Source: Longispora sp. K20-0274 | Lineage (GTDB): Bacteria; Actinomycetota; Actinomycetes; Mycobacteriales; Micromonosporaceae | NCBI RefSeq assembly: GCF_047121295.1 | Contig: NZ_CP139447.1 | Coordinates: 3,298,665 to 3,362,664, forward strand | DNA: 64,000 nucleotides | Direction of reading: 5' to 3' | In this document: one piece after another, positions 38,166 to 60,870 of the stretch | Layout: the number at the start of each line of letters is the position of its first letter | How positions within the stretch are numbered: position 1 is the stretch's first letter | The notes under the pieces: generated by a model | What the model was told of the DNA's origin: nothing | What the model saw: only the letters and a program-made list of their open reading frames with translations | Databases searched by the model: none | Translations under genes and position numbers: made by a program

Positions 38166-38523
38166 GGAGGACGCCTCTCGGGGGGACCAGAAGCTGTCAA
38201 CATCACGGTCTGTAGTGATCCGTTGTGGACCGGGTGAGTTTGCCACACTCAGCTTGTACCGAACAAGGCGCAAGTATGTTTACTGTCGGCATGGGTAGGG
38301 ATGCGCATCGTGCGACAGAGTGACCTAAGTCTCATTCTGTTCTTTGTCTGTCGCGGACCTGCCAGTTTACTCACGTCGATCATGTCCATGACCTTGTGCT
38401 GATACCGGATTACGCGTGGTCCATAATGGATCGCTGGGTGCGCGCCTTGGCTGATACTTGTCCCGCTGATATCGTCACCCCGGCTGATTAGCGCAATAAT
38501 GTCGACTTCGTCGGGATGGTGGG

Positions 38524-40845: not shown

Positions 40846-40885
40846 AACCACGCCCCGGGACCACCGGGGCCTCCTGGGGAGAGAC

Positions 40886-41305
40886 ATGGCACAGAAGACG
40901 AGTACGGTGCGGGATCTCGCCTGGCTGCTCGATGACCTGGTGGACCGGGTCGCGCATGCCCGGCAGGCGGCGGTGCTGTCGGCCGACGGCCTGCTGATCG
41001 CGGCGTCCAGTGGGCTCGACCGCGAGGACGCCGACCACCTCTCGGCCGTCGCGGCCGGGTTCCAGAGCCTGGCCCGGGGCGCCGGCCGGCACTTCGGTGG
41101 CGGCTCGGTGCGCCAGACCATCATCGAGATGGACTCGGCCTTCCTGTTCGTGATCGCCGCCGGGCACGGGGCGTGCCTGGCGGTCCTCGGGTCGGAGGAC
41201 GCCGACATCGGCCTCATCGCGTACGAGATGGCGATGCTCGTCGCCCGGGTCGGGCAGTACCTGGCCACCCCGTCGCGTACCTCCGTCATGGCTGCCGAGG
41301 TCTGA
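40886..41305 (+). CDS. cvnB: Roadblock/LC7 domain protein (CvnB)
   Basis: ~140 aa with the typical Roadblock pattern (...AAVLSADGLLIAAS...FLFVIAAGHGACLAVLG...). GGGGAGAG RBS lies upstream. Confidence 0.8.
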   Translation: MAQKTSTVRDLAWLLDDLVDRVAHARQAAVLSADGLLIAASSGLDREDADHLSAVAAGFQSLARGAGRHFGGGSVRQTIIEMDSAFLFVIAAGHGACLAVLGSEDADIGLIAYEMAMLVARVGQYLATPSRTSVMAAEV

Positions 41306-41307
41306 CC

Positions 41308-41661
41308 ATGAACGAATGGCTGGACGAGGATGCCGGGCCGGTCGTCCGCCCGTACGCCATGACCCGTGGCCGGACCCGCCCCTCCACGGGCGAGTTCGAC
41401 CTGATCGCCCTCGTCGTCTCCACCGGTGCGACGGCCGCCGGCCTCGAGCCGGAGCACACGGCGATCCTGGGCCTGTGCGACGCGCCCCTGTCGGTGGCCG
41501 AGATCTCGGCGCACCTGGACCTGCCGGTCGGCATCATCCGGGTGTTCCTGGGCGACCTGCTCACCGCCGGGCTGATCCAGGCCCGTGCGCCGCAGCCGGC
41601 GGCCGAGCTGCCGAGCAGGCGGACCCTCCTGGCGGTGATCGATGGTCTCCGTGCCCTCTGA
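41308..41661 (+). CDS. cvnC: DUF742 protein (CvnC)
   Basis: VRPYAMTRGRTRP...FDLIALV...LSVAEISAHLDLPVGIIRVFLGDLL is the characteristic DUF742 pattern. It starts 3 nt after the cvnB stop. Confidence 0.75.
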   Translation: MNEWLDEDAGPVVRPYAMTRGRTRPSTGEFDLIALVVSTGATAAGLEPEHTAILGLCDAPLSVAEISAHLDLPVGIIRVFLGDLLTAGLIQARAPQPAAELPSRRTLLAVIDGLRAL

Positions 41662-42223
41662 CGCCACCACGCTGCCCACCGCGATCAAGATCCTGGTCGC
41701 GGGCGGGTTCGGCGCGGGCAAGACGACCCTCGTCGGCGCGGTCAGCGAGATCAAGCCGCTGCGCACCGAGGAGACCATCACCGAGGAGAGCGTCGGCATC
41801 GACGACCTGTCCGGGGTGGAACGCAAGGAGACCACGACGGTCGCCATGGACTTCGGCCGGATCACGATCAACCCGGAGCTGGTGCTGTACCTGTTCGGCA
41901 CCCCCGGCCAGGACCGGTTCTGGTTCGTCTGGGACGAGCTCGCGCTCGGCGCCGTCGGTGCCGTCGTGCTGGCCGACACCCGCCGGCTGCCCGGCTGCTT
42001 CCCGTCGATCGACTACTTCGAACGCCGGGGCACCCCGTTCATCGTCGCCGTGAACTGCTTCGACGGCGCCGACCGGCACGACCCGGCCGAGGTGCGCGCG
42101 GCGCTGGACCTGGACCCGGAGGTGCCGGTCGTGCTGTGCGACGCCCGGGTCCGCGCGTCCAGCAAGGAGGTCCTGATCACGCTGGTCGAGCACGTGGTGA
42201 ACTCCACCCCGGCCTACGCGTAG
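41642..42223 (+). CDS. cvnD: ATP/GTP-binding protein, small Ras-like GTPase (CvnD)
   Basis: P-loop GGFGAGKTT, DTPGQ, and NCFD (NKxD-like) motifs. Overlaps the cvnC end. Confidence 0.8.
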   Translation: MVSVPSDATTLPTAIKILVAGGFGAGKTTLVGAVSEIKPLRTEETITEESVGIDDLSGVERKETTTVAMDFGRITINPELVLYLFGTPGQDRFWFVWDELALGAVGAVVLADTRRLPGCFPSIDYFERRGTPFIVAVNCFDGADRHDPAEVRAALDLDPEVPVVLCDARVRASSKEVLITLVEHVVNSTPAYA

Positions 42224-46564: not shown

Positions 46565-47518
46565 ATGTTGAGGACCATCGCAGTCGTGATCATGGACGGG
46601 GTCGCGCCGTTCGAGCTCGGCCTGTTGTGCGAGGTCTTCGGCGTCGACCGCTCCGACGACGGCGTGCCGAGGTTCGACTTCCGGGTGTGCGGCGAGCGGG
46701 CCGGCGAGCCGCTGCGCTCCGGGGTGGGCATGCTCGTCACCCCCGAGCACGGGCTCGACGCGCTCGCCGGCGCGGACCTGGTCGCGGTCCCCGCACACGG
46801 CATCATCGACGACTACCCGCCCGCCGTGCTGGCCGCGCTGCGCGCCGCCGCCGACCGGGGCACCACCCTGGTGTCGGTGTGCAGCGGGGTGTTCGTCCTG
46901 GGCGCCGCCGGCCTGCTCGACGACCGGCCGTGCACCACGCACTGGCGGCACGCGGAGGAGTTGGCCCGCCGGTTCCCGGCCGCCAAGGTCGACGCCGACG
47001 TGCTGTTCGTCGACGACGGCACCCTGGTCACCAGCGCCGGCACGGCGTCGGGCATCGACGCCTGCCTGCACGTCGTCCGCCGCGAGCTCGGCTCCGGGGT
47101 GGCCAACGCCATCGCCCGGCGGATGGTCGTCGCGCCGCAGCGCGAGGGCGGCCAGCGCCAGTTCGTGGAGCTGGCCATCCCCGAGTGCACCGGCGACAGC
47201 CTCCAGCCCCTGCTGGCCTGGATGCTGGAGCACCTGGACACCGAGCACTCCGTGGCCGACCTCGCGCACCGGGCGATGATGTCCGAGCGCACCTTCGCCC
47301 GCCGGTTCGCGGCCGAGACGGGCACCACCCCGGGGCGGTGGATGGCGTTGCAGCGGGTGCTGCACGCCCGCCGGCTGCTGGAGGAGACCCAGCTGTCCGT
47401 CGAGGAGGTCGCGCACGTCTGCGGCTTCGGCACCGCCGCGCTGCTCCGGCACCACTTCCACAAGATCGTCGGGGTGGCGCCGAAGGACTACCGGCGCTCG
47501 TTCGCCAGCACGCCGTAG
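46565..47518 (+). CDS. GlxA-family transcriptional regulator (DJ-1/PfpI domain + AraC-type HTH)
   Basis: N-terminal class I glutamine-amidotransferase-like domain (...VSVCSGVF...) and two C-terminal AraC HTH helices. Confidence 0.8.
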   Translation: MLRTIAVVIMDGVAPFELGLLCEVFGVDRSDDGVPRFDFRVCGERAGEPLRSGVGMLVTPEHGLDALAGADLVAVPAHGIIDDYPPAVLAALRAAADRGTTLVSVCSGVFVLGAAGLLDDRPCTTHWRHAEELARRFPAAKVDADVLFVDDGTLVTSAGTASGIDACLHVVRRELGSGVANAIARRMVVAPQREGGQRQFVELAIPECTGDSLQPLLAWMLEHLDTEHSVADLAHRAMMSERTFARRFAAETGTTPGRWMALQRVLHARRLLEETQLSVEEVAHVCGFGTAALLRHHFHKIVGVAPKDYRRSFASTP

Positions 47519-48534
47519 GCCACCAGGCAGTGCCAGAGCTGCTTGACGTACTGCAGGGTCTCCGCCCGGGTGCCCCACTCCGCCCACAGGTCCGGGTCCG
47601 TGACCACGGACCGGGCCGCGTGGCCGAGCACGGCGGCGTCGAGCACGCCGGACGGTGCGTGGTCGCCGAGGATCCGCGCGGCCAGGGGCCGCATCACCGG
47701 ACCCCGGAATTCGACGGGTACCTCGTCCGCCGTCAACGTGAAGCCGCCGTGCCACTCGACCCCGATCCCGCACCGGTCGGCCAGCACGACCAGGAGCTTC
47801 CCGGTCTCCGTGCCGTCGAACGACGGGTCGAGCACCAGTGCCTCGGCGTCGGCGGCCAGGTCGACGGGCCCGTGCACCTGGGCCTCCACGTAGTCGTCCA
47901 GCGCCCTGCCGGGCGCCTGCGCGGGGTCGACGCCGGACCGCGCGGGCAGGGCCAGCAGGTGGGCCACCGGGTCCACGCCCGGCACGCCCAGCATGGCCTC
48001 CGTCGCGCCCCCGACCAGCCCGGCCAGGACGTCCTCGAACGCGTCGATCGTGCCCAGGTCCGTCGGCCCCGTATGGCTGTCTCCGTGGCAGAACGTGGCC
48101 CGCTCCGACACCGCCGCCCGCAGCCGGACGTGGCACGAGCCGAACCGGGGCGCGGCCCCGTCCGGGTGCCCCATCAGGTCCAGCGCGCCGTAGGTCGGCC
48201 GGTCCGCCACGCGGACGCCCGGGGCCTGGTACGCCCCGCCGAACAGCCGCTCCTCCCAGCGGTCGCGGTCGCCCCCGGGATACGCCGTCAGGCCGCCGTT
48301 GGACACCCCGGTCTCGAACTGGCTGCGGTACCGGCCGTCAGACGCCAGCCCCTCGGCCACGGTCCGCCCGTCGGCGAGCAGCCGGTCGGGGTGGAAGTTG
48401 AGCGTGATCCGGCCGTGGGCGCGGACGGCTGCGAGCAGCGCGGCGGAGTCGGGGAGCGCGCGGTCGCGGCGGACGGTGGAGCGGACGTGGTCGAGGGCCG
48501 CGCGCTGGGCGGCGGTCAGTGGGGTGGGCTGCAC
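47488..48534 (-). CDS. DUF3626 domain protein (unknown function); last gene of the minus-strand lanthipeptide operon
   Basis: Conserved DUF3626-like core (...RITLNFHPDR..., GGAYQAPG...). A GTG at 48534 was chosen; an upstream ATG at 48699 would add a Pro-rich low-complexity extension. Confidence 0.5.
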   Translation of the reverse strand: MQPTPLTAAQRAALDHVRSTVRRDRALPDSAALLAAVRAHGRITLNFHPDRLLADGRTVAEGLASDGRYRSQFETGVSNGGLTAYPGGDRDRWEERLFGGAYQAPGVRVADRPTYGALDLMGHPDGAAPRFGSCHVRLRAAVSERATFCHGDSHTGPTDLGTIDAFEDVLAGLVGGATEAMLGVPGVDPVAHLLALPARSGVDPAQAPGRALDDYVEAQVHGPVDLAADAEALVLDPSFDGTETGKLLVVLADRCGIGVEWHGGFTLTADEVPVEFRGPVMRPLAARILGDHAPSGVLDAAVLGHAARSVVTDPDLWAEWGTRAETLQYVKQLWHCLVAYGVLANERR

Positions 48535-48631
48535 CCGGGAAGTATCGGCGCGGTCCGGTACCCCCGGCAATCGGTTTGTCCGCCGCCCCCCCGGAGCGGG
48601 CAGGGGCGGCCGCCCGCGGCCGGTGGACGGT

Positions 48632-49852
48632 TCAGGTGCCGGCGGTCGCGGGCCGGGCGACGCCGATGCGGACCAGGTCCGTGACCAGCTCGGTCGCATC
48701 GGCGGCGTCGAGTCCGGGCACGAGGTCGGCGGCACACCACGGTTCCGGGTCGTCGGCGGTCAGCAGTGCCGCAACGACGGCGGCGGCCGGCTCCTCGAAC
48801 TCGACGGTGAACGCGCCGAGGTGCAGCCGGAGCCCGCCGCCGTCGAGTGCGGTGACCCCGCAGACCGCTTCGGCGACCGTGCGCACCGGGGTGTCCTCGG
48901 CCAGGCCGGGCAGGATCGCCGCGGTGGCGGCCGGGGTGCGCGGTTCGAGGAAGAACCTCCGGTAGGCGTCGGCCATGACCTCGGCGTCGGCGGCCGGATC
49001 GAGGCTGTTCAGGGCCGCGCGGAGCTGCGCGACCGTCGTGGCGACGGCCCTGGCTCGGAGGCGGGGGTCGGCGCAGAATCCCCACGGGACCTCCGCGCGC
49101 AGCTCTTCGACGGCGTCGAGCCGGGCGAGGAGCTGTGTCGCGATCCAGTGGCCGGTCAGCGCGGGGAAGGCCAGACTCAGGTGCAGTGAGTGCTCGTCGG
49201 TGGCGAACCCGTTGTGCACCCAGCCGCGGGGGATCCACAGCGCGTCCCCGACACGGAGCACGGTCTCCAGTTGGGGGGTGCCGTGGCGCAGTCGGGCCCA
49301 ATCCGCGTCGGAGACCCGCTCGGCGCGGAACGGCTGGTGTTCCAGCGGATCGGTGAGCACCGGGGCGTGCACCTGCCACGTCTTACTGCCGGAGGTCTGC
49401 ACGATCAGGACGGCATGCGTGTCGTGGTGGTGGGCGAAGCCCTGGCTGCCGGCCGGGGTGAGGTAGGCGTTCGCGCCGACCGGCAGGCCGGTCTCCCAGC
49501 TCAGGCGGCGGCACAGGTCGCCCACCGGTGGCCAGGTTCGGTGGAGCGACTCCAGCACCACGGTCGAGCCGTCGCGCAACAGGGTGGTGAGCCGGGCCGG
49601 GCGGACCACGTCGGCGAATCCGGGCTGGACAGGTCTGCCCGACCAGGTGTAGGTGCCGCCGGGCACCCGTCGGCCGTCGGTGACCACGCTGACCATCTGC
49701 CGGTGCAGCGACCCGTGGTCGAGCAGCGCGTCGACGTCCGCGAGACAGAACGGCGGCGGGGCCGGCAGCGACCAGATGGCCGGACGCCGGGGCGGAGCGG
49801 CGAGAAAGCCGGCGGGATCGGGTACGAGCCCCGACAGGGCGGTCAGGCGCAT
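48632..49852 (-). CDS. JmjC/cupin-4 family 2-oxoglutarate/Fe(II)-type oxygenase (putative peptide hydroxylase)
   Basis: HxD...H iron facial triad candidates (FAHHHDTHAV ... WVHNGF) in a cupin fold. GAGGAG RBS lies 6 nt upstream. The start overlaps the MFS stop by 10 nt. Confidence 0.7.
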   Translation of the reverse strand: MRLTALSGLVPDPAGFLAAPPRRPAIWSLPAPPPFCLADVDALLDHGSLHRQMVSVVTDGRRVPGGTYTWSGRPVQPGFADVVRPARLTTLLRDGSTVVLESLHRTWPPVGDLCRRLSWETGLPVGANAYLTPAGSQGFAHHHDTHAVLIVQTSGSKTWQVHAPVLTDPLEHQPFRAERVSDADWARLRHGTPQLETVLRVGDALWIPRGWVHNGFATDEHSLHLSLAFPALTGHWIATQLLARLDAVEELRAEVPWGFCADPRLRARAVATTVAQLRAALNSLDPAADAEVMADAYRRFFLEPRTPAATAAILPGLAEDTPVRTVAEAVCGVTALDGGGLRLHLGAFTVEFEEPAAAVVAALLTADDPEPWCAADLVPGLDAADATELVTDLVRIGVARPATAGT

Positions 49853-51087
49853 CGTCTGCTCCTCAGGGGTTGTCCGGCGTGCGCCGGTGCGGGTGCGGTC
49901 AACTGGGCGCGCACGGGACCCACGGTGCAGAGCGCGGCGCACAGGCCCAGACAGGCCGCCATCGTGCCGTAGCCGGCCTGCGGGCCGAACCGTTGCAGCA
50001 GCCAGCCCATGGTGACGAAGGCGAACGGGTAGAGGACGGAGCCGATCAGGGTCATCGAACTCTGGGCGCGGCCCATCAGGTCGTCGGGCACCAGTCGGTA
50101 GGTGTGCGCGGTGAGCGCGATGACGAGGACCGGGCCCATCGCGGACAACAGGGCCAGCCCGACGGCCGTCGGGACCGGGTACGGCGCCACCGCCACGAAT
50201 GTCGTCACGGCGACGGCGCCGACGCCGCTGGTCAGCACGGCGGTGTACGGCCGGTCGGTGACCAGCCGGGGGGCCAGGGCCGCGCCGACCAGTGCTCCGA
50301 CGGAGACCGTGCCGGCCAGTACCCCGATGAGGGTCGGTGTGGTGCCGTGTGCCCGCAGCATCGGCACCAGGCCGAAGAACGCACCGGCGGTGGCGAAGTT
50401 CAGCACCGACGACCAGACGGTGACGACGCGCAGGAACGGCTGACCGGCGACGAACCGCAGGCCGGTGCCGATGTCGGCGAGCATGCCACCGGCCGAACGC
50501 GGCGCCCCGCCGCCGAGGTCGCCGCCGATCCCGGCCACCAGCACCGCGCACGCGACGAACGTCGCCACGTCGAGGACGAAGGGAGCCCACGGCCACAGCG
50601 CGAACAGCGCCCCGCCGATCGCCGGTCCGAGGAGTCCGGCGGCGTAGGTCCGGGTCTCGTTGAGCGACACCGCCCGGGTGAGCTGGTCCGACCCGACCAG
50701 CGCGCGGAGCGCCCCGCCCAGCGACGGGTTGTACACGGAACTGACGAGGCCGTCGAGACCCGCGATCAGGAGCAATGGCCACACCGCGCGCGCCCCGGTG
50801 GCCAGCATGACCGCCGGGCCGGCCCACAGCACCGCCTTGACGAGGTCGACCCGGATCATGACGGTGCGCCGGCGCCACCGGTCGGCGAGGACGCCGGCCG
50901 GCAGCCGGGCCACGTTCAGCACGACGAGCCTGACGGTGGCCAGACCACCGGCCGCGACCGCCGAGCCGGTCAGGTGCAGGAGCAACAGCGGCAGGCAGAT
51001 GTCGCTGATCCGGGAGCCGAGCGCCGACAGCGCCTGGCCCCACCAGAACCGACCGAAGTCGCGGTTGCCCCGCAGCAGGCCGGTCAT
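49843..51087 (-). CDS. MFS transporter (putative exporter)
   Basis: 12-TM major facilitator pattern. The ATG overlaps the stop of the upstream flavoprotein gene as ATGA. Confidence 0.75.
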   Translation of the reverse strand: MTGLLRGNRDFGRFWWGQALSALGSRISDICLPLLLLHLTGSAVAAGGLATVRLVVLNVARLPAGVLADRWRRRTVMIRVDLVKAVLWAGPAVMLATGARAVWPLLLIAGLDGLVSSVYNPSLGGALRALVGSDQLTRAVSLNETRTYAAGLLGPAIGGALFALWPWAPFVLDVATFVACAVLVAGIGGDLGGGAPRSAGGMLADIGTGLRFVAGQPFLRVVTVWSSVLNFATAGAFFGLVPMLRAHGTTPTLIGVLAGTVSVGALVGAALAPRLVTDRPYTAVLTSGVGAVAVTTFVAVAPYPVPTAVGLALLSAMGPVLVIALTAHTYRLVPDDLMGRAQSSMTLIGSVLYPFAFVTMGWLLQRFGPQAGYGTMAACLGLCAALCTVGPVRAQLTAPAPAHAGQPLRSRRCA

Positions 51088-51629
51088 CCGGCTGCCCGCC
51101 ACTGCGCCTCGACGATCTTCGCGGTGCCCGAGGGGCCGGGCATGGCATGGCTGTCGCCGAACTCGCCGTTCCACAGGGTCAGGACGGTGGTCGGTTCCGG
51201 GGAGACCACCACGACCCCGCGCTCCCTCAGGCCGCGCACGGCGGCCTGCGTGGTCCGGGCCCGCCACATCGTCGGGTGCATGTGGGGGAAGAGAACGACC
51301 GGGGCGGGCGTGGCCAGCACGGCCGTGAGCGCGGGCGAGTTGGCCAGCCCCAACGCGGCGGACACCACGAAATTGGCCGTGGCGGGGGCGACGACCAGCA
51401 GCCGGGCGGTGTGCGCGAACGCGACCGGGTTGAATCCGGTCGCGTTCGGCTCGACCACCTCGTCGGCCAGCAATCGGATAGCGGTCGGCTGCACGAACGT
51501 CAGGGCGGCCGAGGTGAGCAGGACGGTGGTGGGCACCGGGAGCCGCCGCCGCCAGGCGGTCAGGTGCGCGGGCAGTTCGAGGGCCGCGCTGGCGCCGGTG
51601 CACACCACCGCCAACCGGTCAGCGGGCAT
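51084..51629 (-). CDS. lanD: HFCD-family flavoprotein, peptidyl-cysteine decarboxylase (LanD/EpiD/MicD-like)
   Basis: Flavoprotein fold (LAVVCTGASAALELP..., VVAPATANFVVSAALGLANS, PAPVVLFPHMHPTMW) typical of homo-oligomeric flavin-containing Cys decarboxylases. The start overlaps the lanKC stop by 11 nt. Confidence 0.75.
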   Translation of the reverse strand: MPADRLAVVCTGASAALELPAHLTAWRRRLPVPTTVLLTSAALTFVQPTAIRLLADEVVEPNATGFNPVAFAHTARLLVVAPATANFVVSAALGLANSPALTAVLATPAPVVLFPHMHPTMWRARTTQAAVRGLRERGVVVVSPEPTTVLTLWNGEFGDSHAMPGPSGTAKIVEAQWRAAG

Positions 51630-54204
51630 GGCCGACCCCGACGCCCGACCAGCCGTACCGCAGGTCCAGGGTCCGACCGCCGGTGGCCAGGCGGCGCAGC
51701 GCCAGGGCGATGCCCGCCGAGCCGGTCGCGAGGTCGCAGCTCAGCCGCAGCAGCCCGTCGCCGGGGAACGCCACGCCGTCGGGTCCGGGTCGGCGCAGCG
51801 CCACGATCTGCCCGACGAGGCCGGCCAGAGCCTCGTCGACGGCCGGGTCGCCGGGCAGCACGTCCCGGCAGTCCAGCAGGAACTCCACCAGGCCGGTCAT
51901 CCCGGAGAACAGCCCCGGATTGACGGTGAACGGCATGGCCACCCCGCGCACGATCGAGCCGAGGGTCGTCGTGAGCCGTTCGTCGCCGGTGACCGCGAGC
52001 CGCCGGGCCACGGCCATGCCGACGCCCGCTCCGCCGCGCAGGAGGTACGGCTCGTACGCCGTGGCCCGCGCGTACGCGCCAAAGCCCAGGCCGCCGTTGC
52101 GCCGGAGCCGGCCGCGTTCGAGGTCGAAGGCCAGCGCCCGGCCGCCGAGTCGCAGCAGGCGGTCGTCGCCGGTCCGCGCGCCCAGTTCGGTGAGGAAGCC
52201 CGACACCCCGGACGATCCGTGCAGGTAGCCGAGCGGGTGCCGCGCGGTGTCCGTGGGCCACCACAGTCCCGTGCCGTCATCCTCGGCCTCGCCGGTCAGC
52301 CGGGCGGCGACCTCCGTGGCCAGGTCCGTCCAGGAGCCGTCGCCGGTCGCGTCGGCCGCCGCGAGCAGGCCGAGCCCGACGCCGGCGCGTCCCGTGGCCA
52401 CCCCGGCCGGTAGCTTGCCGTCGACCGCCCGGCGCGCCGCGTCGCGCAACAGTGCCGTGCCCCGGTCGGTCTCGCCGGCCTCGAGGATGGTGACGGCGAT
52501 GCCCGTGGCGCCGACGTACAGTCCGGCGGGAAGCGCGGGGTGCTCGTCGAGCCGGGCCAGCAGCCAGTCGAGTGCCACCGGATCGGCCACGCCATCGAGG
52601 AGCAGCAGGGCGCGCAGGACGCCGGCGGCTCCGTAGGCCACCGACAGCGGATTCGTGCGGAACAGCTCCGGGTGGGCGGGGAAGAGCCGGTCGGCGCGGT
52701 GGGGGGTCGCCGCCGATCGCAGGTGCCGGACGACCCCGTCGACCAGCTCGGGTGGCGTGGGCGCCGGGCCGTCGTCGGCGGCGACGCCGGGGGCACCGCG
52801 CTCCAGGACGGCCAGCAGGTCCCCGAGCGGGCGGTCCAGCGCGGCGGCGGTGTGCCGCAGGGTGCGCCCGAACACGCCCGGGTCCAGGCCCAGCAGCGCG
52901 TTGCGGGGAACGACGCAGGCCGCCTCGACGGCGGCGACGGAGAACCGCAGGTAGTCGTGGTCCACGCCCCATGCCGGTGAACCGACCTCCGGCGCGAACC
53001 CCAAGGTCCGGGGGTACCCGGCGGGGTCGTCTCCGGCGGGACGGCAAGCCTCGAAGTCGACCAGCCGCACCGTGTCGTCCTCGTCGACGAGGATGTTGGT
53101 GAGGGACAGGTCGCCGTGCACGACGCCATGGTCCGCGCAGGTCCGCACGGCGGCGGCGAGCTGCGTGAGCAGACCGTCGACCCTCCGGTTGTACGCGGCG
53201 ACCGTGTCGCGATCGGTGAATCCGCGCGCGAAGGGGTGGTGCCGCGCCAGCCACACCTGCAGAGTGATCCCGGGGACCAGGCTCTGCACGAGGAACGTGT
53301 GCTCCCACAGCCGGGTGAGCTCCACGGCCGCCGGCGCGACCCCGGTGCCGGCCAGGTCCAGCAGGAAGGCGTGCTCCCGGTGCAGCCGTTCGACCGCGTC
53401 GGACCCGTCGGGGGCGAACGCCGTGTGCGGCCGGGCCTCCTTGAGTACGACGTCGCGACCGTCGGGCCCGGTGGCCAGGTACACCCCGCCGGCTGTGGAG
53501 TGGCGCAGGACGGACCGGACCCGGTACCTGGTCAGCAGGTCACCACCGGTCGGTTCCGTCCCCGGCGGGAAGGGGTCCTCGGTGACCCACGGCGGCAGCG
53601 TGAACCGGGGGGTGCGCGCATCCGTCCACGCGGTCCCGTCCGGGCCGGTCACCGTGGCCGTGACGTGCCCGTCGGCATCGACGCCGGCCGGCCGGCGCAC
53701 CGTGCCGTACCGGTACTGCACCGTGCCGCTGCCCGGGTAGCGCCGGTCGGTCAGGATGTGCGGCCCCGCGAACCCGTCGAGGCGGTGGGCCAGCCGGTCG
53801 GCGAGCTCGCGGGCGTGCCCGACCGAGGTGGGGTACACCGTCACGGCCTTTCCCGCCCCGCCCCTCGACCACCAGCGGCTGAGCTGGGCGACGGCGAGCT
53901 CCGTGGACCGCACGCACTTGAAGCTGAACGGGCCCTCGAGGTACTCGTCGACGACCGCGTCCACCACGGCCAGCACGTCGGCGGGCCGGCAGGACACGTG
54001 CAGTTTCCAGCCGTGCGCCGGCAACTGTGACATGGGCTGGGCCAGGCACCGGACCCAGATCCCCATGGCCGAGACCGCGCCGGTGTCACCGAGGCGGTCG
54101 CGCACCAGGTCACGCAGGTCGGCGGTGTCGGGCCCGTGGTCGATCCGCTCGTAGTACAGCGGATCGGCGATCGCGTAGGCCCGCAACGATTCGATGATGG
54201 ACAC
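51619..54204 (-). CDS. lanKC: Class III lanthipeptide synthetase LanKC (N-terminal lyase, central Ser/Thr kinase, C-terminal zinc-ligand-free LanC-like cyclase)
   Basis: Lyase-domain N-terminus (...GWKLHVSCRP...) and a kinase core (VVHGDLSLTNILV ... VDFE). The C-terminal cyclase domain has GYLHGSSG and NPGLFSGMTG where LanC/LanM enzymes carry WCHG and CHG, so the Cys-Cys-His zinc site is absent. A GTG at 54204 is preceded by GGAGGA. The track shows a 1294-aa ORF whose first ~430 aa are antisense low-complexity artefact. Confidence 0.85.
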   Translation of the reverse strand: MSIIESLRAYAIADPLYYERIDHGPDTADLRDLVRDRLGDTGAVSAMGIWVRCLAQPMSQLPAHGWKLHVSCRPADVLAVVDAVVDEYLEGPFSFKCVRSTELAVAQLSRWWSRGGAGKAVTVYPTSVGHARELADRLAHRLDGFAGPHILTDRRYPGSGTVQYRYGTVRRPAGVDADGHVTATVTGPDGTAWTDARTPRFTLPPWVTEDPFPPGTEPTGGDLLTRYRVRSVLRHSTAGGVYLATGPDGRDVVLKEARPHTAFAPDGSDAVERLHREHAFLLDLAGTGVAPAAVELTRLWEHTFLVQSLVPGITLQVWLARHHPFARGFTDRDTVAAYNRRVDGLLTQLAAAVRTCADHGVVHGDLSLTNILVDEDDTVRLVDFEACRPAGDDPAGYPRTLGFAPEVGSPAWGVDHDYLRFSVAAVEAACVVPRNALLGLDPGVFGRTLRHTAAALDRPLGDLLAVLERGAPGVAADDGPAPTPPELVDGVVRHLRSAATPHRADRLFPAHPELFRTNPLSVAYGAAGVLRALLLLDGVADPVALDWLLARLDEHPALPAGLYVGATGIAVTILEAGETDRGTALLRDAARRAVDGKLPAGVATGRAGVGLGLLAAADATGDGSWTDLATEVAARLTGEAEDDGTGLWWPTDTARHPLGYLHGSSGVSGFLTELGARTGDDRLLRLGGRALAFDLERGRLRRNGGLGFGAYARATAYEPYLLRGGAGVGMAVARRLAVTGDERLTTTLGSIVRGVAMPFTVNPGLFSGMTGLVEFLLDCRDVLPGDPAVDEALAGLVGQIVALRRPGPDGVAFPGDGLLRLSCDLATGSAGIALALRRLATGGRTLDLRYGWSGVGVGHAR

Positions 54205-54221: not shown

Positions 54222-54246
54222 GGGGCCCGGAGCGGATCCGGGCCCC
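54222..54246 (-). promoter_or_regulatory. Stem-loop (10-bp GC stem GGGGCCCGGA/TCCGGGCCCC, 5-nt loop) between precursor gene and lanKC; candidate attenuator/processing site
   Basis: Perfect inverted repeat seen in the 55-nt spacer between the precursor stop and the lanKC start. No U-tract follows it. Confidence 0.4.
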
Positions 54247-54259
54247 GTGAGCGGTCGGA

Positions 54260-54358
54260 CTAGCAGCCGTAGCTGACGCCGCTGCCGTCGGTGTCGGGCG
54301 AGACGTACTCGGCCGTCTCGTCGTTCTCGATGACCTGCAGGTCCAGAACCTCTGCCAT
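54260..54358 (-). CDS. lanA: Class III lanthipeptide precursor peptide, 32 aa: MAEVLDLQVIENDETAEYVSPDTDGSGVSYGC
   Basis: This ORF is absent from the supplied track because it is shorter than 60 aa. AAGGAG RBS lies 6 nt upstream of the ATG. The leader carries the class III (I/L)(L/F)(D/E)LQ recognition motif as VLDLQ. The core ends in S-x-x-S-x-x-C with a C-terminal Cys, a labionin/avionin-type motif. It lies immediately upstream of lanKC on the same strand. Confidence 0.75.
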   Translation of the reverse strand: MAEVLDLQVIENDETAEYVSPDTDGSGVSYGC

Positions 54359-54436
54359 GACGATCTCCTTCGGTGATGTCGGGAGCCGAGGTGTTCGGCC
54401 CCGGCGGACTCGGGCTCGCCGAGCCACGGACAACAG

Positions 54437-54467
54437 CTCACCAGCGGATATCGACCCGCCGCTATGG
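54437..54467 (-). promoter_or_regulatory. Candidate sigma70-like promoter for the precursor operon (TTGCCG - 18 nt - CGATAT on minus strand)
   Basis: Hexamer-like elements seen ~90 nt upstream of the precursor ATG in the divergent intergenic region. Weak, unverified. Confidence 0.2.
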
Positions 54468-54550
54468 GTATCGGCAATGCGGGGGTCCGGCCCTCGGCGC
54501 CGGGTGGCGGCGGTGACCCGCCGACCCGGGAATCTGGGTGCTGAGCACGC

Positions 54551-57500
54551 ATGCGCGCCGGCCGGACAGCGGGCATGCTGTCGTGCATGGACGGTGACGG
54601 GCGCGCGGGGACGGAGCGGTGCTGGTGGGCGCGCGGGCTGACCCTGACCGAACGGCCGACGCCGGCCCCCGGGCGGGTCGTCGCCGGGGACGCCGACCGG
54701 GCGGCCCGCAGGCTGGCCCGGTGGCGCACGGTGTTCCCGACCGGCGAGGCGTTCGGTGCCCGGCTCGCCGCGGCCGGCATCGACGAGAATGTCCTGGCGC
54801 TGCTGCTGGCCGAGGACGCCACCTCGCTCGCCGGCCGGGTCGACCGGCCCGACTGGGCCGGCTTCGCCGAACGGGCCGCCCAGCTGGCCCGGCCACCGAC
54901 CGGGCGGGAATTCACCTGGGAGGACGGGTTCGGCGCCATCGTCGGCCCGTTCGCGGAGCTGGCGGCCCGTGAACTGCTGGCCGCCGAGCCGGGACTGCGC
55001 GACCTGCGGGCCGGCTTCACCGCCCAGACCAGGGGGCTGCTGACGCGCCTGGCCCGCCGGACACTGGTCCTGGAGCTCAACGTGTACCGGGTGTCCGGCC
55101 GCCTCGACGGGGCCATGCCCCGTGACCGGTTCGCCAGCTTCGTGCGCCAGCTGTGCACCAGGGAGGGACTCACCGCGCTGATCGAGGAGTACGCGGTGCT
55201 GGCCCGGCTGCTGGCCCAGGCGTGCCTGCAGAACGTGACCGCCTGGGTGGAGCTGTACGGAAGGTTCACCCGGGACCGCCCCGCCATCGTCGCCGACCTG
55301 CTGGGCGCCGTCGAACCAGGTCCGTTGGTGGAGATCGCCTCCGGCGCCGGTGACCGGCACCGGGGCGGCCGGTCCGTGGCGGTGCTGAGGTTCGCCGACG
55401 GCGCGCGGGTCGTGTACAAACCCCGACCGGTGACCGCGCACGCCCTGTTCAACTGTGCCGTGCGCTGGCTCAACGCGCGGATGCCGGGGCCGGCCCTCCC
55501 CACGCTGGCTCTGCTGTCGCGACCGTCCCACGGCTGGGTGGAGTTCGCGGCCCACGCGCCGTGCCGGGACCGCGACGGGGTCGACCGGTTCTACCGCAGG
55601 CAGGGCGCGACCCTGGCCCTGCTGCACGCTCTGGACGCCACCGACATCCACCACGAGAACCTCGTGGCCCGTGGCGACGAGCCGGTGCTGGTGGACCTCG
55701 AGACCCTGCTGCATCCGACCCTGCCGGTCCCCGGACCGCGCGCCACGGACCCGGCGGCCCGGGCGATGGACTCCTCGGTGTACCGAACGGCCCTGCTGTC
55801 CCTGCCGGTGGTCGGCGACCACGGCATGATCGACCTGTCCGGCCTCGGCGCGGACAAGGGGGCTTTGAGCCCGCTGGACGGGGTCGGCTGGGGCGCGCCC
55901 GGTACCGACGAGATGCGGCTGGTCCGCCGGCAGGAGACCTTCGAGGGCTCGGACAACCGTCCCCGGCTCGACGGACGCGACGCCGATCCGGCGGCGTACA
56001 CCGCCAGCCTGCTCTCCGGTTTCCGCGACGCGTACCAGGCCATCGCCTCGGGTCGGGCCGAACTCGTCGGTCCCGACGGGCCGTTGGCCGCATCCGGGGG
56101 TGCCGACCTGCGGGTGGTGGTCCGACCCACCCGGGTGTACGCGACGCTGCTCGACGAGTCGACCCACCCCGACGTGCTGCGCGACGCCCTCGACCGGGAC
56201 CGGCTGCTGGACACACTGTGGGCGGACTCGACCGGCGCCGCGCTGTGGTGGCAGGTGGCCGGCGCGGAGATCGCCGGCCTGTGGGCGGGCGACATTCCGC
56301 TGTTCGACACCAGGTCGGACTCCCTCGCCCTGGCTTCGGGCGGGTTCACCCTCGACGGGGCACTCGACGCCACCGGCGTGCGCCGGGTCTCCGCCAAGCT
56401 CGCCGCGCTGGGCGGGCCGGACCAGTACGACCAGGAATGGATCATCCAGGCCGCGCTCGCCACCCGCGCACCGCTGCCCGAGCACCGGCCGGGGCGGTCC
56501 GGCGCCCATCCGCACGCGACGACGGTGCCCGACCGCGACCGGCTTCTCGCCTCGGCCTGCGGCATCGCCGACCAGTTGGTCGCGATGGCCTTCGAGGACG
56601 ACCACCACGCGAACTGGCTGGGCCTGGAGCCCGTCGACGACCGGCACTGGATGGTGCTGCCTCAGGGCGCGGGCCTGGCCCACGGGTACTGTGGCACCGC
56701 GCTCCTGCTCGCCCAGCTGGCGGGGATCACCGGGACCGCCCGGTACGCGCGGCTCGCCCGCAGGGCGGTGTGCCCGATTCCGAACCTGCTCGACCACCTC
56801 GCCCGGCACCCCGAACAGGCCGCGGCGGTCGGCTGCGGCGGATTCGCCGGCTTCGGCGGCATCGCCTACGCCCTCAGCCACCTGGCGGCGCTCCTGGACG
56901 ACGGGGAGGTCGCCGGCTGGGTGCCGGGCGCGGTCCGGCTGGTCGCCGGGGCCGCCCACGGCAGCGGGCCGGGCGTGCTGACCGGGGCCGCCGGCGGGGT
57001 GGCCGCCATGCTCGCCGTGCACGCGACAACGGGTTCGGACCTGGCCTGGGACGCGGCGCGGACCTGTGCCGACGCGGTACTGGCAGCCGATCCGGCCGGG
57101 TTGCCCGCCGGATTCGGCACCGGACTCGCGGGGATGGGCTGGGCCCTCGCCCGGTTCGGGGCCTCCGGCGGTGGCACCCGCTACGCCGACGCCGGCCGCG
57201 CGCTGCTGGCCGCGAGCCGTCCGGCGGCGGACGATCCCAGCTGGTGCCACGGCCTGCCAGGCCTGGCGCTCGCCCTGGCCGACCTGGGGGACACACCGGC
57301 GGGCGGGACCGTGGACCGGGCGGTCGGCGCCGTGGCGGCCCGGCCGCCGCTGGACGACCACAGCCTGTGCCACGGCGAGCTCGGCGGCCTGGAGCTGCTG
57401 GTGGAGGCCGCCGCCGGCGGGCACCACGCCGCCAGGGCCGGGCGGATCCCCCGGGCGGGCCTGCTGCTGGCGGCCCTGGACCGCGTCGGCCCTCAGTGCG

Positions 57501-57673
57501 CCACCCCGGGCCTGGTGCCCAGCCCGGGTCTGCTCACCGGGCTGGCCGGGATCGGCTACGGACTGCTGCGGCTGGGCTTCCCCGACCGGACGCCCAGCGT
57601 CCTCCTGCTCAGACCACCCCACGCGCCCGCGACTCGGCCGGGCGCGGTGTCCCTACGACAAGGAGCGACATGA
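54551..57673 (+). CDS. lanM: Class II lanthipeptide synthetase LanM (N-terminal DUF4135 dehydratase domain + C-terminal LanC-like cyclase with intact zinc ligands)
   Basis: Dehydratase/kinase-like motifs DIHHENLVARGDEPVLVDLETLL, and cyclase motifs LAHGYCG, SWCHGLPG, SLCHGELGG (Cys-Cys-His zinc site). Start uncertain; ATG 54551, 54575 and 54587 are all possible. Confidence 0.8.
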   Translation: MRAGRTAGMLSCMDGDGRAGTERCWWARGLTLTERPTPAPGRVVAGDADRAARRLARWRTVFPTGEAFGARLAAAGIDENVLALLLAEDATSLAGRVDRPDWAGFAERAAQLARPPTGREFTWEDGFGAIVGPFAELAARELLAAEPGLRDLRAGFTAQTRGLLTRLARRTLVLELNVYRVSGRLDGAMPRDRFASFVRQLCTREGLTALIEEYAVLARLLAQACLQNVTAWVELYGRFTRDRPAIVADLLGAVEPGPLVEIASGAGDRHRGGRSVAVLRFADGARVVYKPRPVTAHALFNCAVRWLNARMPGPALPTLALLSRPSHGWVEFAAHAPCRDRDGVDRFYRRQGATLALLHALDATDIHHENLVARGDEPVLVDLETLLHPTLPVPGPRATDPAARAMDSSVYRTALLSLPVVGDHGMIDLSGLGADKGALSPLDGVGWGAPGTDEMRLVRRQETFEGSDNRPRLDGRDADPAAYTASLLSGFRDAYQAIASGRAELVGPDGPLAASGGADLRVVVRPTRVYATLLDESTHPDVLRDALDRDRLLDTLWADSTGAALWWQVAGAEIAGLWAGDIPLFDTRSDSLALASGGFTLDGALDATGVRRVSAKLAALGGPDQYDQEWIIQAALATRAPLPEHRPGRSGAHPHATTVPDRDRLLASACGIADQLVAMAFEDDHHANWLGLEPVDDRHWMVLPQGAGLAHGYCGTALLLAQLAGITGTARYARLARRAVCPIPNLLDHLARHPEQAAAVGCGGFAGFGGIAYALSHLAALLDDGEVAGWVPGAVRLVAGAAHGSGPGVLTGAAGGVAAMLAVHATTGSDLAWDAARTCADAVLAADPAGLPAGFGTGLAGMGWALARFGASGGGTRYADAGRALLAASRPAADDPSWCHGLPGLALALADLGDTPAGGTVDRAVGAVAARPPLDDHSLCHGELGGLELLVEAAAGGHHAARAGRIPRAGLLLAALDRVGPQCATPGLVPSPGLLTGLAGIGYGLLRLGFPDRTPSVLLLRPPHAPATRPGAVSLRQGAT

Positions 57674-57867
57674 CCGACACAGATCTGATCAGGTCCTGGA
57701 AGGACCCGGAGTCCCGCGACGAGCCGGCCGCCGACCATCCGGTGGGGGAGATCCGACCCAGGATCGACCTGCGCGCGGGCTCCCGAGTCCTGGCGCTGGT
57801 CGGCATGGCCGGCGTCCTGTTCGCGTCGCTGCCGGGCACCGAGACGACGACCTCGCTGACCGGGTGA
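57670..57867 (+). CDS. 65-aa peptide with class II (LanM-type) leader motif but no cysteine: MTDTDLIRSWKDPESRDEPAADHPVGEIRPRIDLRAGSRVLALVGMAGVLFASLPGTETTTSLTG
   Basis: The ATG overlaps the lanM stop (ATGA) and has AAGGAG 5 nt upstream. The N-terminus carries the (I/L)xxWK(D/N)PxxR leader motif seen in mersacidin/lichenicidin-alpha-type LanA peptides. The C-terminal half is hydrophobic with a TETTTS tail and contains no Cys. Confidence 0.5.
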   Translation: MTDTDLIRSWKDPESRDEPAADHPVGEIRPRIDLRAGSRVLALVGMAGVLFASLPGTETTTSLTG

Positions 57868-57942: not shown

Positions 57943-60870
57943 ATGCAGCTGACGTCTCCGGTGCTCATCGGCCGCAGTTCCGAGATCGCCGCGCTGGAGG
58001 CCGGGATCGAGGCCGCCCGCACCGGTTCCGGGCGGGCGGCCTTCCTGGTCGGGGAGGCGGGGGTCGGCAAGTCCCGGCTGGCCGCCGAGTGCGCCTACCG
58101 GGCGTTCGCCGCCGGCATGCCCGTGCTGCGCGGCCGGTGCAGTTCCACCGGGGTGCGGATGCCGCTGCGTCCCATCACGGAGGCGCTACTCTCCCTGTTC
58201 CGCACCGGAGGTCCGCCGAGGAACCCGGAACTGGAACCGTACCGGCCCGCCCTCGCCCGGCTCGTGCCCGACTGGCGGGACAAGGGGGCGCCGGACGAGC
58301 CCGGGGCTTTGATCGAGACCGCCGAGGCGGTGCTGCGCCTGCTCGCGGTGGTCGGCGCGGACGGCGGCTGCGTTCTCGTGCTGGAGGACCTGCACGACGC
58401 CGACGCCGAGACACTGGCGGTGCTGGAGTATCTGGTCGACAACGTCGCCGGCCTGCGCGTGTTCCTGCTCGGCGCCCTGCGCTCGGCACCCGGCCCGGCC
58501 CTCGACCTGGCCAGGGCCACCGGGCGACGGCGGACGGCGGTCCTCGCCGAACTCGCCGGGCTGACCGATGAGCAGGTGCGACAGATGGCGGCGGCGTGCC
58601 TGTCCGTCCCCGTCGACGAGCTGTCCGGTCCGGTCGCCGACCGGCTCGTCCGGTACGGCGACGGGAACCCGTTCGTCGTCGAGGAACTCCTCGGCGGCAT
58701 GGTCGCGGCGAACCTGCTGCGCCCCTCGACCGACGGGTGGCGGGTGTTCGGCGACCTGACCCTGGACGTTCCGACCACCGTGGTGCGCAGCGTGACCCTG
58801 CGCGTCGACGGCCTCGGCCCGCAGGGCGCCGAGCTGTTGCACGTCGCCGCCGTGCTCGGCCGGCGGTTCACGCTGTCGGAACTGCGGACCGTGACCGGCC
58901 TCGACGACCGCGGCCTGCTGGGGCACCTGCGCGCCGGGGTCAACGCCCAACTGGTATCGCCGAGCGGACCCGCTCCCGACTGCTACGAGTTCCGCCATGC
59001 GCTCACCGTCGAGGCGCTGCTCAGCTCGATCGGGCCCGCGGAGAGGGCGGCCATCGCCCGGCGGGCCGCCGACGCGCTCGAGGCCGCGCACCCCGGGCAG
59101 CCCGGCGACTGGTGTCAACGACTCGCCGTGCTGCGCCAGTCCGCCGGCGATCCGGTGGCGGCCGGCCTGCTGCTCGTCCGTTCCGGCCGGGCGGCGCTCG
59201 CCTCCGGCGCGGTCGCGTCGGCGGTGGACCTGCTCGAACGGGCCCAGGGCCTCGCCCCGGAGATGGCCCCCGAGCAGCGGGCCGACGTCCTCGAGGCGTT
59301 GTTGTACGCGCTCGCCGAGGCCGGCCAGCTCGACCGGGCCCAGACGGTGCTGGCCACGGCACCCGTCGCCGGGCCTGGAGCCCTCGACCGGGTCAGGGGC
59401 GCCGCGCTGCGGGCCCGGCTGGCCTGGGTGGCGGTGACCGCGGGGCGGATGGCCGACGCCGCGATCCACCTCGCGGTGGCCCGGCAGCTGGCCGGACCCG
59501 GACCCGGGCCGCAGGTCGCCGCCGCCATCGACATCGTCGCGGCCCGGCTGACGTTCTCGGGCAGGGACGGCACCCGGGGGCTCGACCGGGTCGCGGAGGC
59601 CGAGGAACTGGCCCGCCGGGCCGCCGATGCCGCGGAGTCGGCCGGGCTGCCCGTGGTGGCCTGCCAGTCCTGGCAGTTCCTCGCCCTGCTCGCCCGGCGG
59701 CGTGGCATCGACGCCTCCGACAGCTGTGTCCATCGGCTGCTCGCGGTGGCGGAGGAGCACTCGCTACCGGTCTGGTACGCCAACGGCCTGCTCTGGCTGG
59801 GGATCAACGAGTTCCTCCGCACGGCGGAATCCAGCCACCTCGAGCGGGCCCGTCAGGCCACGCTCGGTCTCGGACGGATCGCGCTGACCCACACGGCCGA
59901 GGCGACGCTCGCGATGCACGCCGTGTTCCGGGCCGACTTCGCGACGGCCCGCCAACTCGCCGACTCCTGTGCCGACGCCAGCGCCCGGCTGCGCGACGTG
60001 GACAACCACCAGTACGCGGTGCTGGCCCGGGCCGCGCTCGCCGCGCACCAGGGCCGGCGCCGGGAGATGGACACCGAACTGGCCGAGTTCCGCGACTGGC
60101 AGGGCGAACAGTCGATGCTCATGCCGTTGGTCTTCGGCCGGTGCAGGGCCGTCTGCGCGCTCCTGGAGGAGAAACGGGGCGAGGCGATGGCCGAGCTCGA
60201 CCGCGGGGCTGCCTGGGAGGACCAGCACCCGAACGTGTTCCACCTCGACGGCAGGTACGGGCTCCGCCCGCTGCTCGGTGTCCTCGCCGGCCGGGTGACG
60301 GCGTCCGAGCACGCGAGCCTGGCCGCCGAGCCCGCCGCCCAGCTGCGGTGGAACCGGCAGTTCGTCCTGCTCGCGAGGGCGGTGCTGCTCGGCACGGCCG
60401 GCGACGCGTCGGCGGCGGCGGAGGCGGTCGTCGAGGCGCGCGCGGAGGCGGCGCCGTTTCCGACGACCCATCACCTCGGACTGCGGTTGGTCGCGGAGGC
60501 CGCGCTCGCCGACGGTTGGGGCGAACCGGTCGCCTGGCTCCGCACGGCCGAGGGGTACTTCCACGGTGCGGGAATCCCCGCGGTGGCCGGGGCGTGCCGC
60601 GCGTTGCTCCGGCGGGCCGGCGCGAACGTGGGCCAGCGCCGGGCCGGGATCGAGGAGGTTCCCGTCGCGGTCCGCAGACAGGGGATCACCCTCAGGGAGT
60701 ACCAGGTCCTGCAACTTCTCGTGGCCCGGCCCAGCAACCAGGACATCGCCCAGCGGTTGTTCATCTCTCCCCGGACGGTGGAGAAGCACATCGCCAGCCT
60801 GATCGCGAAGACCCACCGCCCCGACCGCGCGGCACTGAGCGAGTACGCGGCGGACCTGTCGGCGACCTGA
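57943..60870 (+). CDS. LAL-family transcriptional regulator (N-terminal AAA ATPase, TPR-like middle, C-terminal LuxR HTH)
   Basis: Walker A GEAGVGKS, Walker B VLVLEDLHDAD, and a C-terminal LuxR HTH (LREYQVLQLLVARPSNQDIAQRLFISPRTVEKHIASL). Confidence 0.85.
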   Translation: MQLTSPVLIGRSSEIAALEAGIEAARTGSGRAAFLVGEAGVGKSRLAAECAYRAFAAGMPVLRGRCSSTGVRMPLRPITEALLSLFRTGGPPRNPELEPYRPALARLVPDWRDKGAPDEPGALIETAEAVLRLLAVVGADGGCVLVLEDLHDADAETLAVLEYLVDNVAGLRVFLLGALRSAPGPALDLARATGRRRTAVLAELAGLTDEQVRQMAAACLSVPVDELSGPVADRLVRYGDGNPFVVEELLGGMVAANLLRPSTDGWRVFGDLTLDVPTTVVRSVTLRVDGLGPQGAELLHVAAVLGRRFTLSELRTVTGLDDRGLLGHLRAGVNAQLVSPSGPAPDCYEFRHALTVEALLSSIGPAERAAIARRAADALEAAHPGQPGDWCQRLAVLRQSAGDPVAAGLLLVRSGRAALASGAVASAVDLLERAQGLAPEMAPEQRADVLEALLYALAEAGQLDRAQTVLATAPVAGPGALDRVRGAALRARLAWVAVTAGRMADAAIHLAVARQLAGPGPGPQVAAAIDIVAARLTFSGRDGTRGLDRVAEAEELARRAADAAESAGLPVVACQSWQFLALLARRRGIDASDSCVHRLLAVAEEHSLPVWYANGLLWLGINEFLRTAESSHLERARQATLGLGRIALTHTAEATLAMHAVFRADFATARQLADSCADASARLRDVDNHQYAVLARAALAAHQGRRREMDTELAEFRDWQGEQSMLMPLVFGRCRAVCALLEEKRGEAMAELDRGAAWEDQHPNVFHLDGRYGLRPLLGVLAGRVTASEHASLAAEPAAQLRWNRQFVLLARAVLLGTAGDASAAAEAVVEARAEAAPFPTTHHLGLRLVAEAALADGWGEPVAWLRTAEGYFHGAGIPAVAGACRALLRRAGANVGQRRAGIEEVPVAVRRQGITLREYQVLQLLVARPSNQDIAQRLFISPRTVEKHIASLIAKTHRPDRAALSEYAADLSAT

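Follow-up and report, generated by a model that had tools for sequence, protein, structure and literature searches.

The question raised by this locus is whether a very short open reading frame (ORF) on the minus strand of a 64,000-nucleotide stretch of the Longispora sp. K20-0274 genome (contig NZ_CP139447.1; this whole stretch is called the window here) is a genuine lanthipeptide precursor gene, and if so what kind of peptide its neighbours would make of it. An initial annotation had proposed a 32-codon class III precursor at this place, which we call lanA. Our overall reading, in which we have reasonably good confidence, is that lanA stands at the head of a compact and conserved five-gene class III operon, lanA-lanKC-lanD-MFS-JmjC, and that the product of this operon is a non-lipidated peptide of the avionin type. 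The coordinates of all features are given in Table 1.

Retranslation of the minus strand gave the same 32-residue peptide that had been proposed, MAEVLDLQVIENDETAEYVSPDTDGSGVSYGC, read as ATG GCA GAG ... GGC TGC TAG from 54358 to 54260, and the AAGGAG ribosome binding site claimed for it was located at the claimed 6-nt spacing. The distance to the same-strand lanKC also agreed, with 55 nt between the TAG stop (54260-54262) and the GTG start at 54204. The GC content of the window is 73.6%, and long spurious ORFs are therefore common in it; the lanA frame is itself open upstream, which mechanically yields a 1120-aa ORF at 54260-57622 antisense of lanM. The remark that the ORF lay under the 60-aa cut-off of the ORF track needs the caveat that its frame is listed there, as the 1120-aa ORF. 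To see how specific the peptide is, the six-frame translation of the window (1322 stop codons) was scanned for its two motifs, and the results showed that the pattern S..S..C-stop occurs exactly once and the pattern [ILVM][LF][DE]LQ exactly once, both inside lanA. With both motifs unique in the window and placed in one 32-codon ORF, chance does not account for lanA. We also considered a longer precursor with an N-terminal extension and ruled it out, because in several orthologous loci (L002, L004, L007 and L010) an in-frame stop lies just 5' of the ATG, where only the reading of 31 to 34 codons is possible. The sequence evidence and the comparison below show lanA to be a real gene under selection, and we hold this with high confidence.

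The comparison with related loci carries most of this argument. Relatives of LanKC were taken from a scan of species-representative genomes, which gave 80 loci, and the window proteins were placed by tblastn. The closest LanKC proteins are 57% to 66% identical and come from Kribbella, Micromonospora and Actinocatenispora, a second group from Kitasatospora, Streptomyces, Actinocrispum and Catenulispora is 41% to 46% identical, and all others are at 37% or less. The order LanKC-LanD-MFS-JmjC is syntenic in nine complete loci of the first group, and the second group shares the synteny LanKC-LanD-MFS, with JmjC present there only in the Catenulispora locus L014. About 60 more distant LanKC loci are without LanD, except L059, in which a LanD homologue that retains the catalytic His lies upstream of LanKC. 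An ORF of 31 to 42 codons ending in [ST]xx[ST]xxC-stop was found 5' of LanKC in all 19 of the LanD-type loci that include the upstream region, which represent at least eight genera. All ten close loci, from the three genera of the first group, encode the leader M-x-E-[VIL]-L-[DE]-L-Q and the core T-D-G-S-x-[VI]-S-x-x-C-stop, and the nine more distant ones encode variants of the same leader and core design.

Alignment of the first-group precursors and that of L014 gave the leader M-x-E-[VIL]-L-[DE]-L-Q-[VIT]-[ILVM], a hypervariable acidic linker and the core T-D-G-S-[GH]-[VI]-S-[YFI]-x-C, with E-[VIL]-L-[DE]-L-Q invariant in the 12 aligned precursors. Conservation of leader and core together with a hypervariable linker is the classic signature of a precursor of peptides synthesized by the ribosome and post-translationally modified (RiPPs). 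The ribosome binding sites of the orthologues read AAGGAGA or GAGGAGA at a spacing of 6 to 7 nt. In five Kribbella genomes (L003, L004, L005, L007 and L010), lanA, which sits about 70 nt 5' of lanKC there, differs by 0 to 1 of its 96 nt, compared with a nucleotide identity of 84% to 89% for lanKC, indicating that the conservation of lanA reaches synonymous sites. More than 20 precursors encoded beside a LanD of this type were recovered, and every one of them ends in Cys. The JmjC-less second clade with LanKC-LanD-MFS is made up of L012, L016, L020 and L033 (Kitasatospora), L013, L015 and L079 (Streptomyces) and L011 (Actinocrispum); its precursors differ, often come in two tandem copies, and have an additional Cys, for example ...AAYVCSVSSGVSNAC and ...SCGQTSSISDHC. 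Judged from these sequences, the additional Cys suggests an extra ring besides the one at the terminal SxxSxxC.

What is known of class III precursors gives this conservation a possible meaning. Their leader recognition motif is of the ILELQ or LLDLQ type with a theta-xx-theta-xx-theta pattern; a core terminated by SxxSxxC is converted to avionin, which is a labionin with an oxidatively decarboxylated Cys, by a class III LanKC and the flavoprotein LanD; the reacting residues of the lipolanthine octapeptide are Ser2, Ser5 and Cys8; the leader helix is needed by LanKC and not by LanD; and the C-terminal Cys is essential in lipolanthine cores, residues after the core Cys being found only in clusters without lanD (PMC8341899, PMC7540663). 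The VLDLQ motif that had been noted in the lanA leader agrees with the published forms and is kept in the orthologues, with V4, L7 and I10 at the hydrophobic positions of the leader pattern, and the S-x-x-S-x-x-C core with its C-terminal Cys agrees with the avionin motif published for LanKC and LanD, the last eight residues G-S-G-V-S-Y-G-C having the reacting-type spacing Ser2/Ser5/Cys8 and ending in Cys. The lanA peptide fits all of these points, and from this fit we infer the avionin step. On its sequence, lanA is a class III precursor, having the leader, a core of the form Ser/Thr-x-x-Ser-x(2-5)-Cys and an adjoining LanKC, the enzyme type defined by a lyase, a kinase and a cyclase free of Zn ligands. 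It shares with the labyrinthopeptins, SapB/AmfS and curvopeptin the LanKC, a leader of the ILELQ/LLDLQ type, and two Ser and one Cys for the carbacycle; it differs from them in having one motif instead of two, a C-terminal Cys and a LanD, and in scoring under the family thresholds. The spacing is Sx2Sx2C in lanA, in comparison to Sx2Sx2-5C (which includes Sx2Sx3C) in the repeated motifs of class III peptides.

The modifying enzymes are consistent with this assignment. LanKC scored 688.7 bits against the NCBIfam equivalog NF038151, for which the cut-off is 575, and matched the solved class III LanKC enzymes with E values of 1e-39 to 1e-54; its lyase and kinase signatures GWKLH, FKCVRS, VLKEARP, HGDLSLTN and LVDFE are invariant columns across 20 relatives. 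By analogy with MicA/MicKC/MicD, LanKC would bind the amphipathic leader helix through V4, L7 and I10, and would phosphorylate Ser26 and Ser29, and possibly Thr23, with elimination of phosphate to give dehydroalanines (Dha). The flavoprotein LanD would then oxidatively decarboxylate Cys32 to an enethiolate, which may add to Dha29 in a tandem Michael addition, the resulting enolate attacking Dha26, so that the predicted product is an avionin, that is, a labionin-type carbacycle fused with an aminovinyl thioether, with a net change of -82.03 Da. With less certainty, the leader may be trimmed by unlinked peptidases, and the MFS protein may export a small non-lipidated product of about 8 to 12 residues. 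The combination of LanKC, LanD and a C-terminal SxxSxxC makes an avionin-type peptide the preferred product, and we hold an avionin-type ring, argued from the characterised systems, to be moderately probable.

The fifth gene, which is translationally coupled within the operon, may add a further modification. The JmjC protein is 100% identical to a Longispora sp. K20-0274 protein, its relatives among solved proteins are the histidyl hydroxylases NO66 and MINA53 and the putative asparaginyl hydroxylase YxbC, and the HxD...H iron triad is visible (AHHHD...WVHNG). Its nearest non-orthologous relatives, at 41% to 45% identity, are encoded in other RiPP clusters. All 12 precursors of clusters with JmjC contain the segment T-D-G-S, which is missing from those of all eight JmjC-less LanD-type loci with a recovered precursor, and based on this co-occurrence a hydroxylation in the T-D-G-S segment is proposed. 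The enzyme would beta-hydroxylate the core, with the invariant Asp24 as the best-guess site, although as a specific prediction from sequence the hydroxylation of Asp24 must be called doubtful. Among the loci of these non-orthologous relatives, a Streptomyces locus (L086, 1529-10696) has four JmjC_2 genes together with YcaO, TfuA, ThcOx, LanB and C39-ABC transporter genes and a 44-aa precursor-like ORF, and in L087 (7737-9230) a 51-aa ORF lies directly 5' of the JmjC gene.

Several points weigh against the avionin reading. The whole of the proposed chemistry is drawn by analogy, and the JmjC target is a guess from a co-occurrence in two related lineages. The lanA peptide fails the curated NCBIfam thresholds for class III precursors: among the models used (lanthi_III_a, lanthi_III_b and SapB_AmfS), the best match was to lanthi_III_b with 17.8 bits (cut-off 30, E = 0.0025), followed by SapB_AmfS with 14.8 bits (cut-off 25), so that the hidden Markov model check that had been suggested returned weak matches, all of them under threshold. 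Furthermore, LanD has Asn67-Pro68 aligned at the position of EpiD His67, MrsD His75 and TvaF His85, with the same spacing of 14 residues to PATAN; EpiD reportedly cannot do without His67 (H67N is inactive), and the same is reported of the corresponding His in TvaF (H85A is inactive). At the position equivalent to Asn117 (residue 118), the window LanD has His, reading PHMHPTMW in comparison to the motif PxMNxxMW.

These residues favour the alternative of a simple class III peptide with labionin or lanthionine, in whose formation LanD does not decarboxylate but only activates LanKC or carries out some other flavin chemistry, and the known activation of MicKC by MicD lends this some plausibility. 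The loss of the His is a property of the family and not of one protein: Asn-Pro occupies the catalytic-His position in the window LanD and in all 16 syntenic (LanKC-LanD-MFS) orthologues aligned. An exhaustive profile search of a set of 1.8 billion proteins showed that, of the 150 top-ranking HFCD representatives, about one quarter carry the Pro variant, and Pro stands at the His position in all eight complete HFCD matches with E < 1e-30. The gene of one Pro-type HFCD protein overlaps an unrelated lanKC at its end (L089). The Pro variant is therefore a large conserved subfamily and not a decayed gene. A further Pro-type protein, P0222, is encoded on a 3-kb contig beside an O-methyltransferase, a setting that speaks neither for nor against this.

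The window LanD, which shows 100% identity with WP_412543848 from Longispora sp. K20-0274, has 7cfu, MrsD and EpiD as its best matches among solved proteins and retains the flavin-binding and PATANF motifs, and it is under selection in at least eight genera, which speaks against a LanD that has lost its reaction. CypD has been reported active with Asn at the catalytic-His position, which mitigates the loss of His, and the His at the Asn117 position is also present in M. smegmatis CoaBC (PAMHTEMW); among relatives this motif reads PHMNPRMW in Kribbella and PHTDPVMW in Micromonospora. Finally, all precursors beside this LanD type end at Cys, as an HFCD enzyme requires, whereas those of published LanD-less clusters do not. 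We therefore consider a peptide with labionin or lanthionine only to be unlikely, and the earlier proposal that the Cys can be oxidatively decarboxylated is retained in weakened form: the overlap of lanD with lanKC supports it, the Pro at the EpiD His67 position does not, and from the sequences decarboxylation of Cys32 by LanD appears likely, not assured. The references for the LanD alignment were 7cfu, MrsD and 6jls, and with respect to the lipolanthine enzymes the Pro is a putative difference.

HFCD flavoproteins acting on a C-terminal Cys, combined with dehydration of the kinase and lyase type, are also found in the thioamitides (TvaF_S-87, LanKC_t homologues), whose clusters also carry the JmjC-type hydroxylase TvaJ. 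Unlike these, the window cluster has no YcaO/TfuA thioamidation or methyltransferase genes and has a full LanKC with a cyclase domain, while TvaF, on its side, keeps the catalytic His.

If the avionin ring is formed, it may be asked whether the peptide is a true lipolanthine, with an N-acyl group (fatty acid or polyketide) supplied by genes at another place in the genome, which would contradict our reading of a non-lipidated product. The likeness to lipolanthines (MicA/MicKC/MicD of microvionin, NocA of nocavionin, and goadvionin; Wiebach 2018/2020; PMC7540663) is clear, with a short precursor, a theta-xx-theta-xx-theta leader, a C-terminal SxxSxxC (Ser2/Ser5/Cys8) and a LanKC paired with an HFCD LanD, and all characterised avionin peptides are lipidated. 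In one orthologous cluster, that of Micromonospora sp. SH-82 (L084, 15715-16470), a gene for a PlsC-type acyltransferase (PF01553) follows directly after JmjC on the same strand. This gene is not conserved, however, being present neither in the window nor in the Kribbella loci. Pfam scans of 20 genes found no polyketide synthase (PKS), fatty acid synthase (FAS), non-ribosomal peptide synthetase (NRPS) or GNAT domains in the window, and none were found in nine orthologous loci out to about 10 kb each way; the window and loci L001-L085 are free of ketosynthase motifs, and the gene tables of three orthologous loci list no PKS, FAS or NRPS genes. In K. sandramycini the cassette is bounded by the housekeeping genes infC-rpmI-rplT. 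A lipolanthine with distant lipid genes is thus quite improbable, and on balance we expect the product to be non-lipidated, a view we hold with moderate confidence.

The window cluster differs from the lipolanthine clusters not only in being without PKS, FAS, NRPS and acyltransferase genes, but also in its fixed JmjC and MFS members and in the conserved T-D-G that its precursors carry N-terminal to the octapeptide. A likeness to the MicA/NocA/GoaA-type precursors named in the initial annotation applies to the core and the leader, and the JmjC and MFS genes and the missing lipid genes, none of which that annotation mentioned, set the cluster apart. With the core motif and LanD of the lipolanthines and without their lipid machinery, lanA is not filed as a lipolanthine, and it probably acts like the peptide half of one. 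In sum, the cluster is a variation on the gene sets of the antibiotic lipolanthines, without lipid-making genes and with an added oxygenase, and is not categorically surprising.

That lanA is a chance ORF, or that its peptide is the substrate of the divergent class II LanM and not of LanKC, is very improbable, for even though base composition keeps the frame open over 1120 codons and LanM, whose own 65-aa candidate substrate has no Cys, lies only 192 nt away, the ORF, its ribosome binding site and its stop are conserved in 19 loci, LanM is missing from 14 of 20 LanD-type loci in which the peptide is kept, and the leader motif is of class III and not class II. LanM was accordingly rejected as the enzyme that modifies lanA, most orthologous clusters being without it.

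The claim that the gene is unannotated was borne out. The exact lanA peptide had no match in a collection of 15 billion proteins, though neighbours from the same genome are present in it. In Longispora sp. K20-0274, LanD has the accession XNL31005 and the product of the 65-aa ORF that follows LanM has XNL31008; the two accessions between them would fit LanKC and LanM, which would leave none for the lanA peptide. The orthologue is uncalled in the gene tables of K. deserti and Micromonospora sp. SH-82, and in K. sandramycini it is called both as a 31-aa 'hypothetical protein' (MBB6570989.1) and, in the gene table, in an extended 60-aa version. The divergence of this precursor family is probably the reason why annotation pipelines leave lanA unnamed. 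In the literature we found nothing on strain K20-0274 and no paper with the lanA core or leader strings (matches to the strings were in unrelated papers only) or with a LanKC-LanD-JmjC cluster, in a search of incomplete coverage that excluded supplements, so that a prior description is possible.

Table 1. Features of the lanA locus, with positions counted from the first nucleotide of the window.
Feature	Position	Strand	Remarks
lanA precursor gene	54260-54358	-	32 codons and stop; based on translation, orthologous ORFs and window-unique motifs
Shine-Dalgarno sequence AAGGAG	54365-54370	-	6-nt spacer ATCGTC to the ATG at 54356-54358
Leader recognition motif V4-L5-D6-L7-Q8-V9-I10	54329-54349	-	based on aligned precursors and the published motif
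Conserved core T23-D24-G25-S26-G27-V28-S29-Y30-G31-C32	54263-54292	-	SxxSxxC avionin motif, Ser26/Ser29/Cys32; the peptide ends with Cys32
GC-rich stem-loop GGGGCCCGGA-tccgc-TCCGGGCCCC	54222-54246	-	between lanA and lanKC
lanKC, class III lanthionine synthetase	51619-54204	-	861 aa, GTG start; Pfam RamC_N, Pkinase, LANC_like
lanD, HFCD flavoprotein	51084-51629	-	181 aa; 11-nt overlap with the end of lanKC; Pfam Flavoprotein PF02441, E = 1.4e-13
MFS transporter, probable exporter	49843-51087	-	414 aa; overlaps the lanD stop as ATGA; synteny kept in all LanD-type loci
JmjC_2/cupin Fe(II)/2-oxoglutarate oxygenase, probable tailoring hydroxylase	48632-49852	-	406 aa; 10-nt overlap with MFS; Pfam JmjC_2
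Divergent lanA-lanM intergenic region	54359-54550		192 nt; presumed promoter location
LanM class II synthetase	54551-57673	+	divergent from lanA, 192 nt away
65-codon ORF	57670-57867	+	ATGA-coupled to the LanM stop; annotated as hypothetical protein XNL31008
LAL-type regulator (AAA_16 and LuxR/GerE), possible pathway regulator	57943-60870	+	domains from Pfam

The non-coding parts of the locus were also analyzed. The lanA-lanKC spacer (58 nt) has a minimum free energy of -31.2 kcal/mol, and a strong, GC-rich hairpin of 10 to 17 bp was found 3' of the lanA stop in 13 of 13 loci examined, with a sequence that differs each time; a consensus scan detected no T-tract terminator at the lanA-lanKC hairpin. 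By analogy, this hairpin is likely an attenuator or a transcript-stabilising element, and such hairpins are common between lanA and the modification genes. In the lanA-lanM intergenic region, a promoter scan found no sigma-70 consensus, as expected at this GC content, and repeats there are weak only.

With regard to the neighbouring genes, the LAL regulator adjoins the cluster in 8 of the 20 LanD-type loci (the window, L002, L006, L008, L011, L013, L015 and L079). In several genera a pair of LanM and LAL is found again beside clusters with a class III LanKC, in 6 of 20 LanD-type loci and in two LanD-less loci, divergent in some and co-directional in others (L002, L011, L013, L015, L079, L074, L063). 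The start of the 65-codon ORF, LIRSWKDPESR, resembles a leader of the mersacidin-type class II peptides, with a score of 16.3 bits against TIGR03898 (cut-off 23.5), and is followed by HPVGEIR, then by hydrophobic residues and a tail rich in Ser/Thr, with no Cys; similar ORFs lie between LanM and LAL in L002, L011, L013, L015, L079 and L074, and have Cys in some cases only. The product of this ORF would be an unusual substrate for LanM, unless it is no substrate. The DUF3626 gene directly downstream of JmjC (47488-48735, minus strand) has no synteny in related loci and is probably outside the cluster. Further away, the plus-strand genes at 38500-42223 for a NIT-domain histidine kinase, a Roadblock/LC7 protein and an ATP_bind_1 GTPase form an unrelated conservon (cvn)-like operon.

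Taken as a family, the window cluster and its relatives may represent an undescribed class III subfamily, which we put forward tentatively: it would make small, non-lipidated, hydroxylated avionins, with a His-less LanD of variant mechanism and a JmjC enzyme acting at T-D-G-S, and the near-identity of lanA among divergent Kribbella species would point to a role in physiology or signalling and not to an antibiotic. To our knowledge, all reports of avionin to date concern lipidated antibiotics, namely microvionin, nocavionin, the goadvionins and the nocavioguas. The conserved loss of His in LanD bears on how HFCD enzymes activate cysteine, and JmjC oxygenases have been little explored as RiPP tailoring enzymes. 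The locus also illustrates that general pipelines overlook, or do not name, precursor genes of 31 to 34 codons that score under the class III model thresholds. If the reading is true, a five-gene cassette acting on a bare peptide would be a minimal system in which to study and engineer the avionin cross-link, and a non-lipidated avionin would test whether activity needs the lipid.

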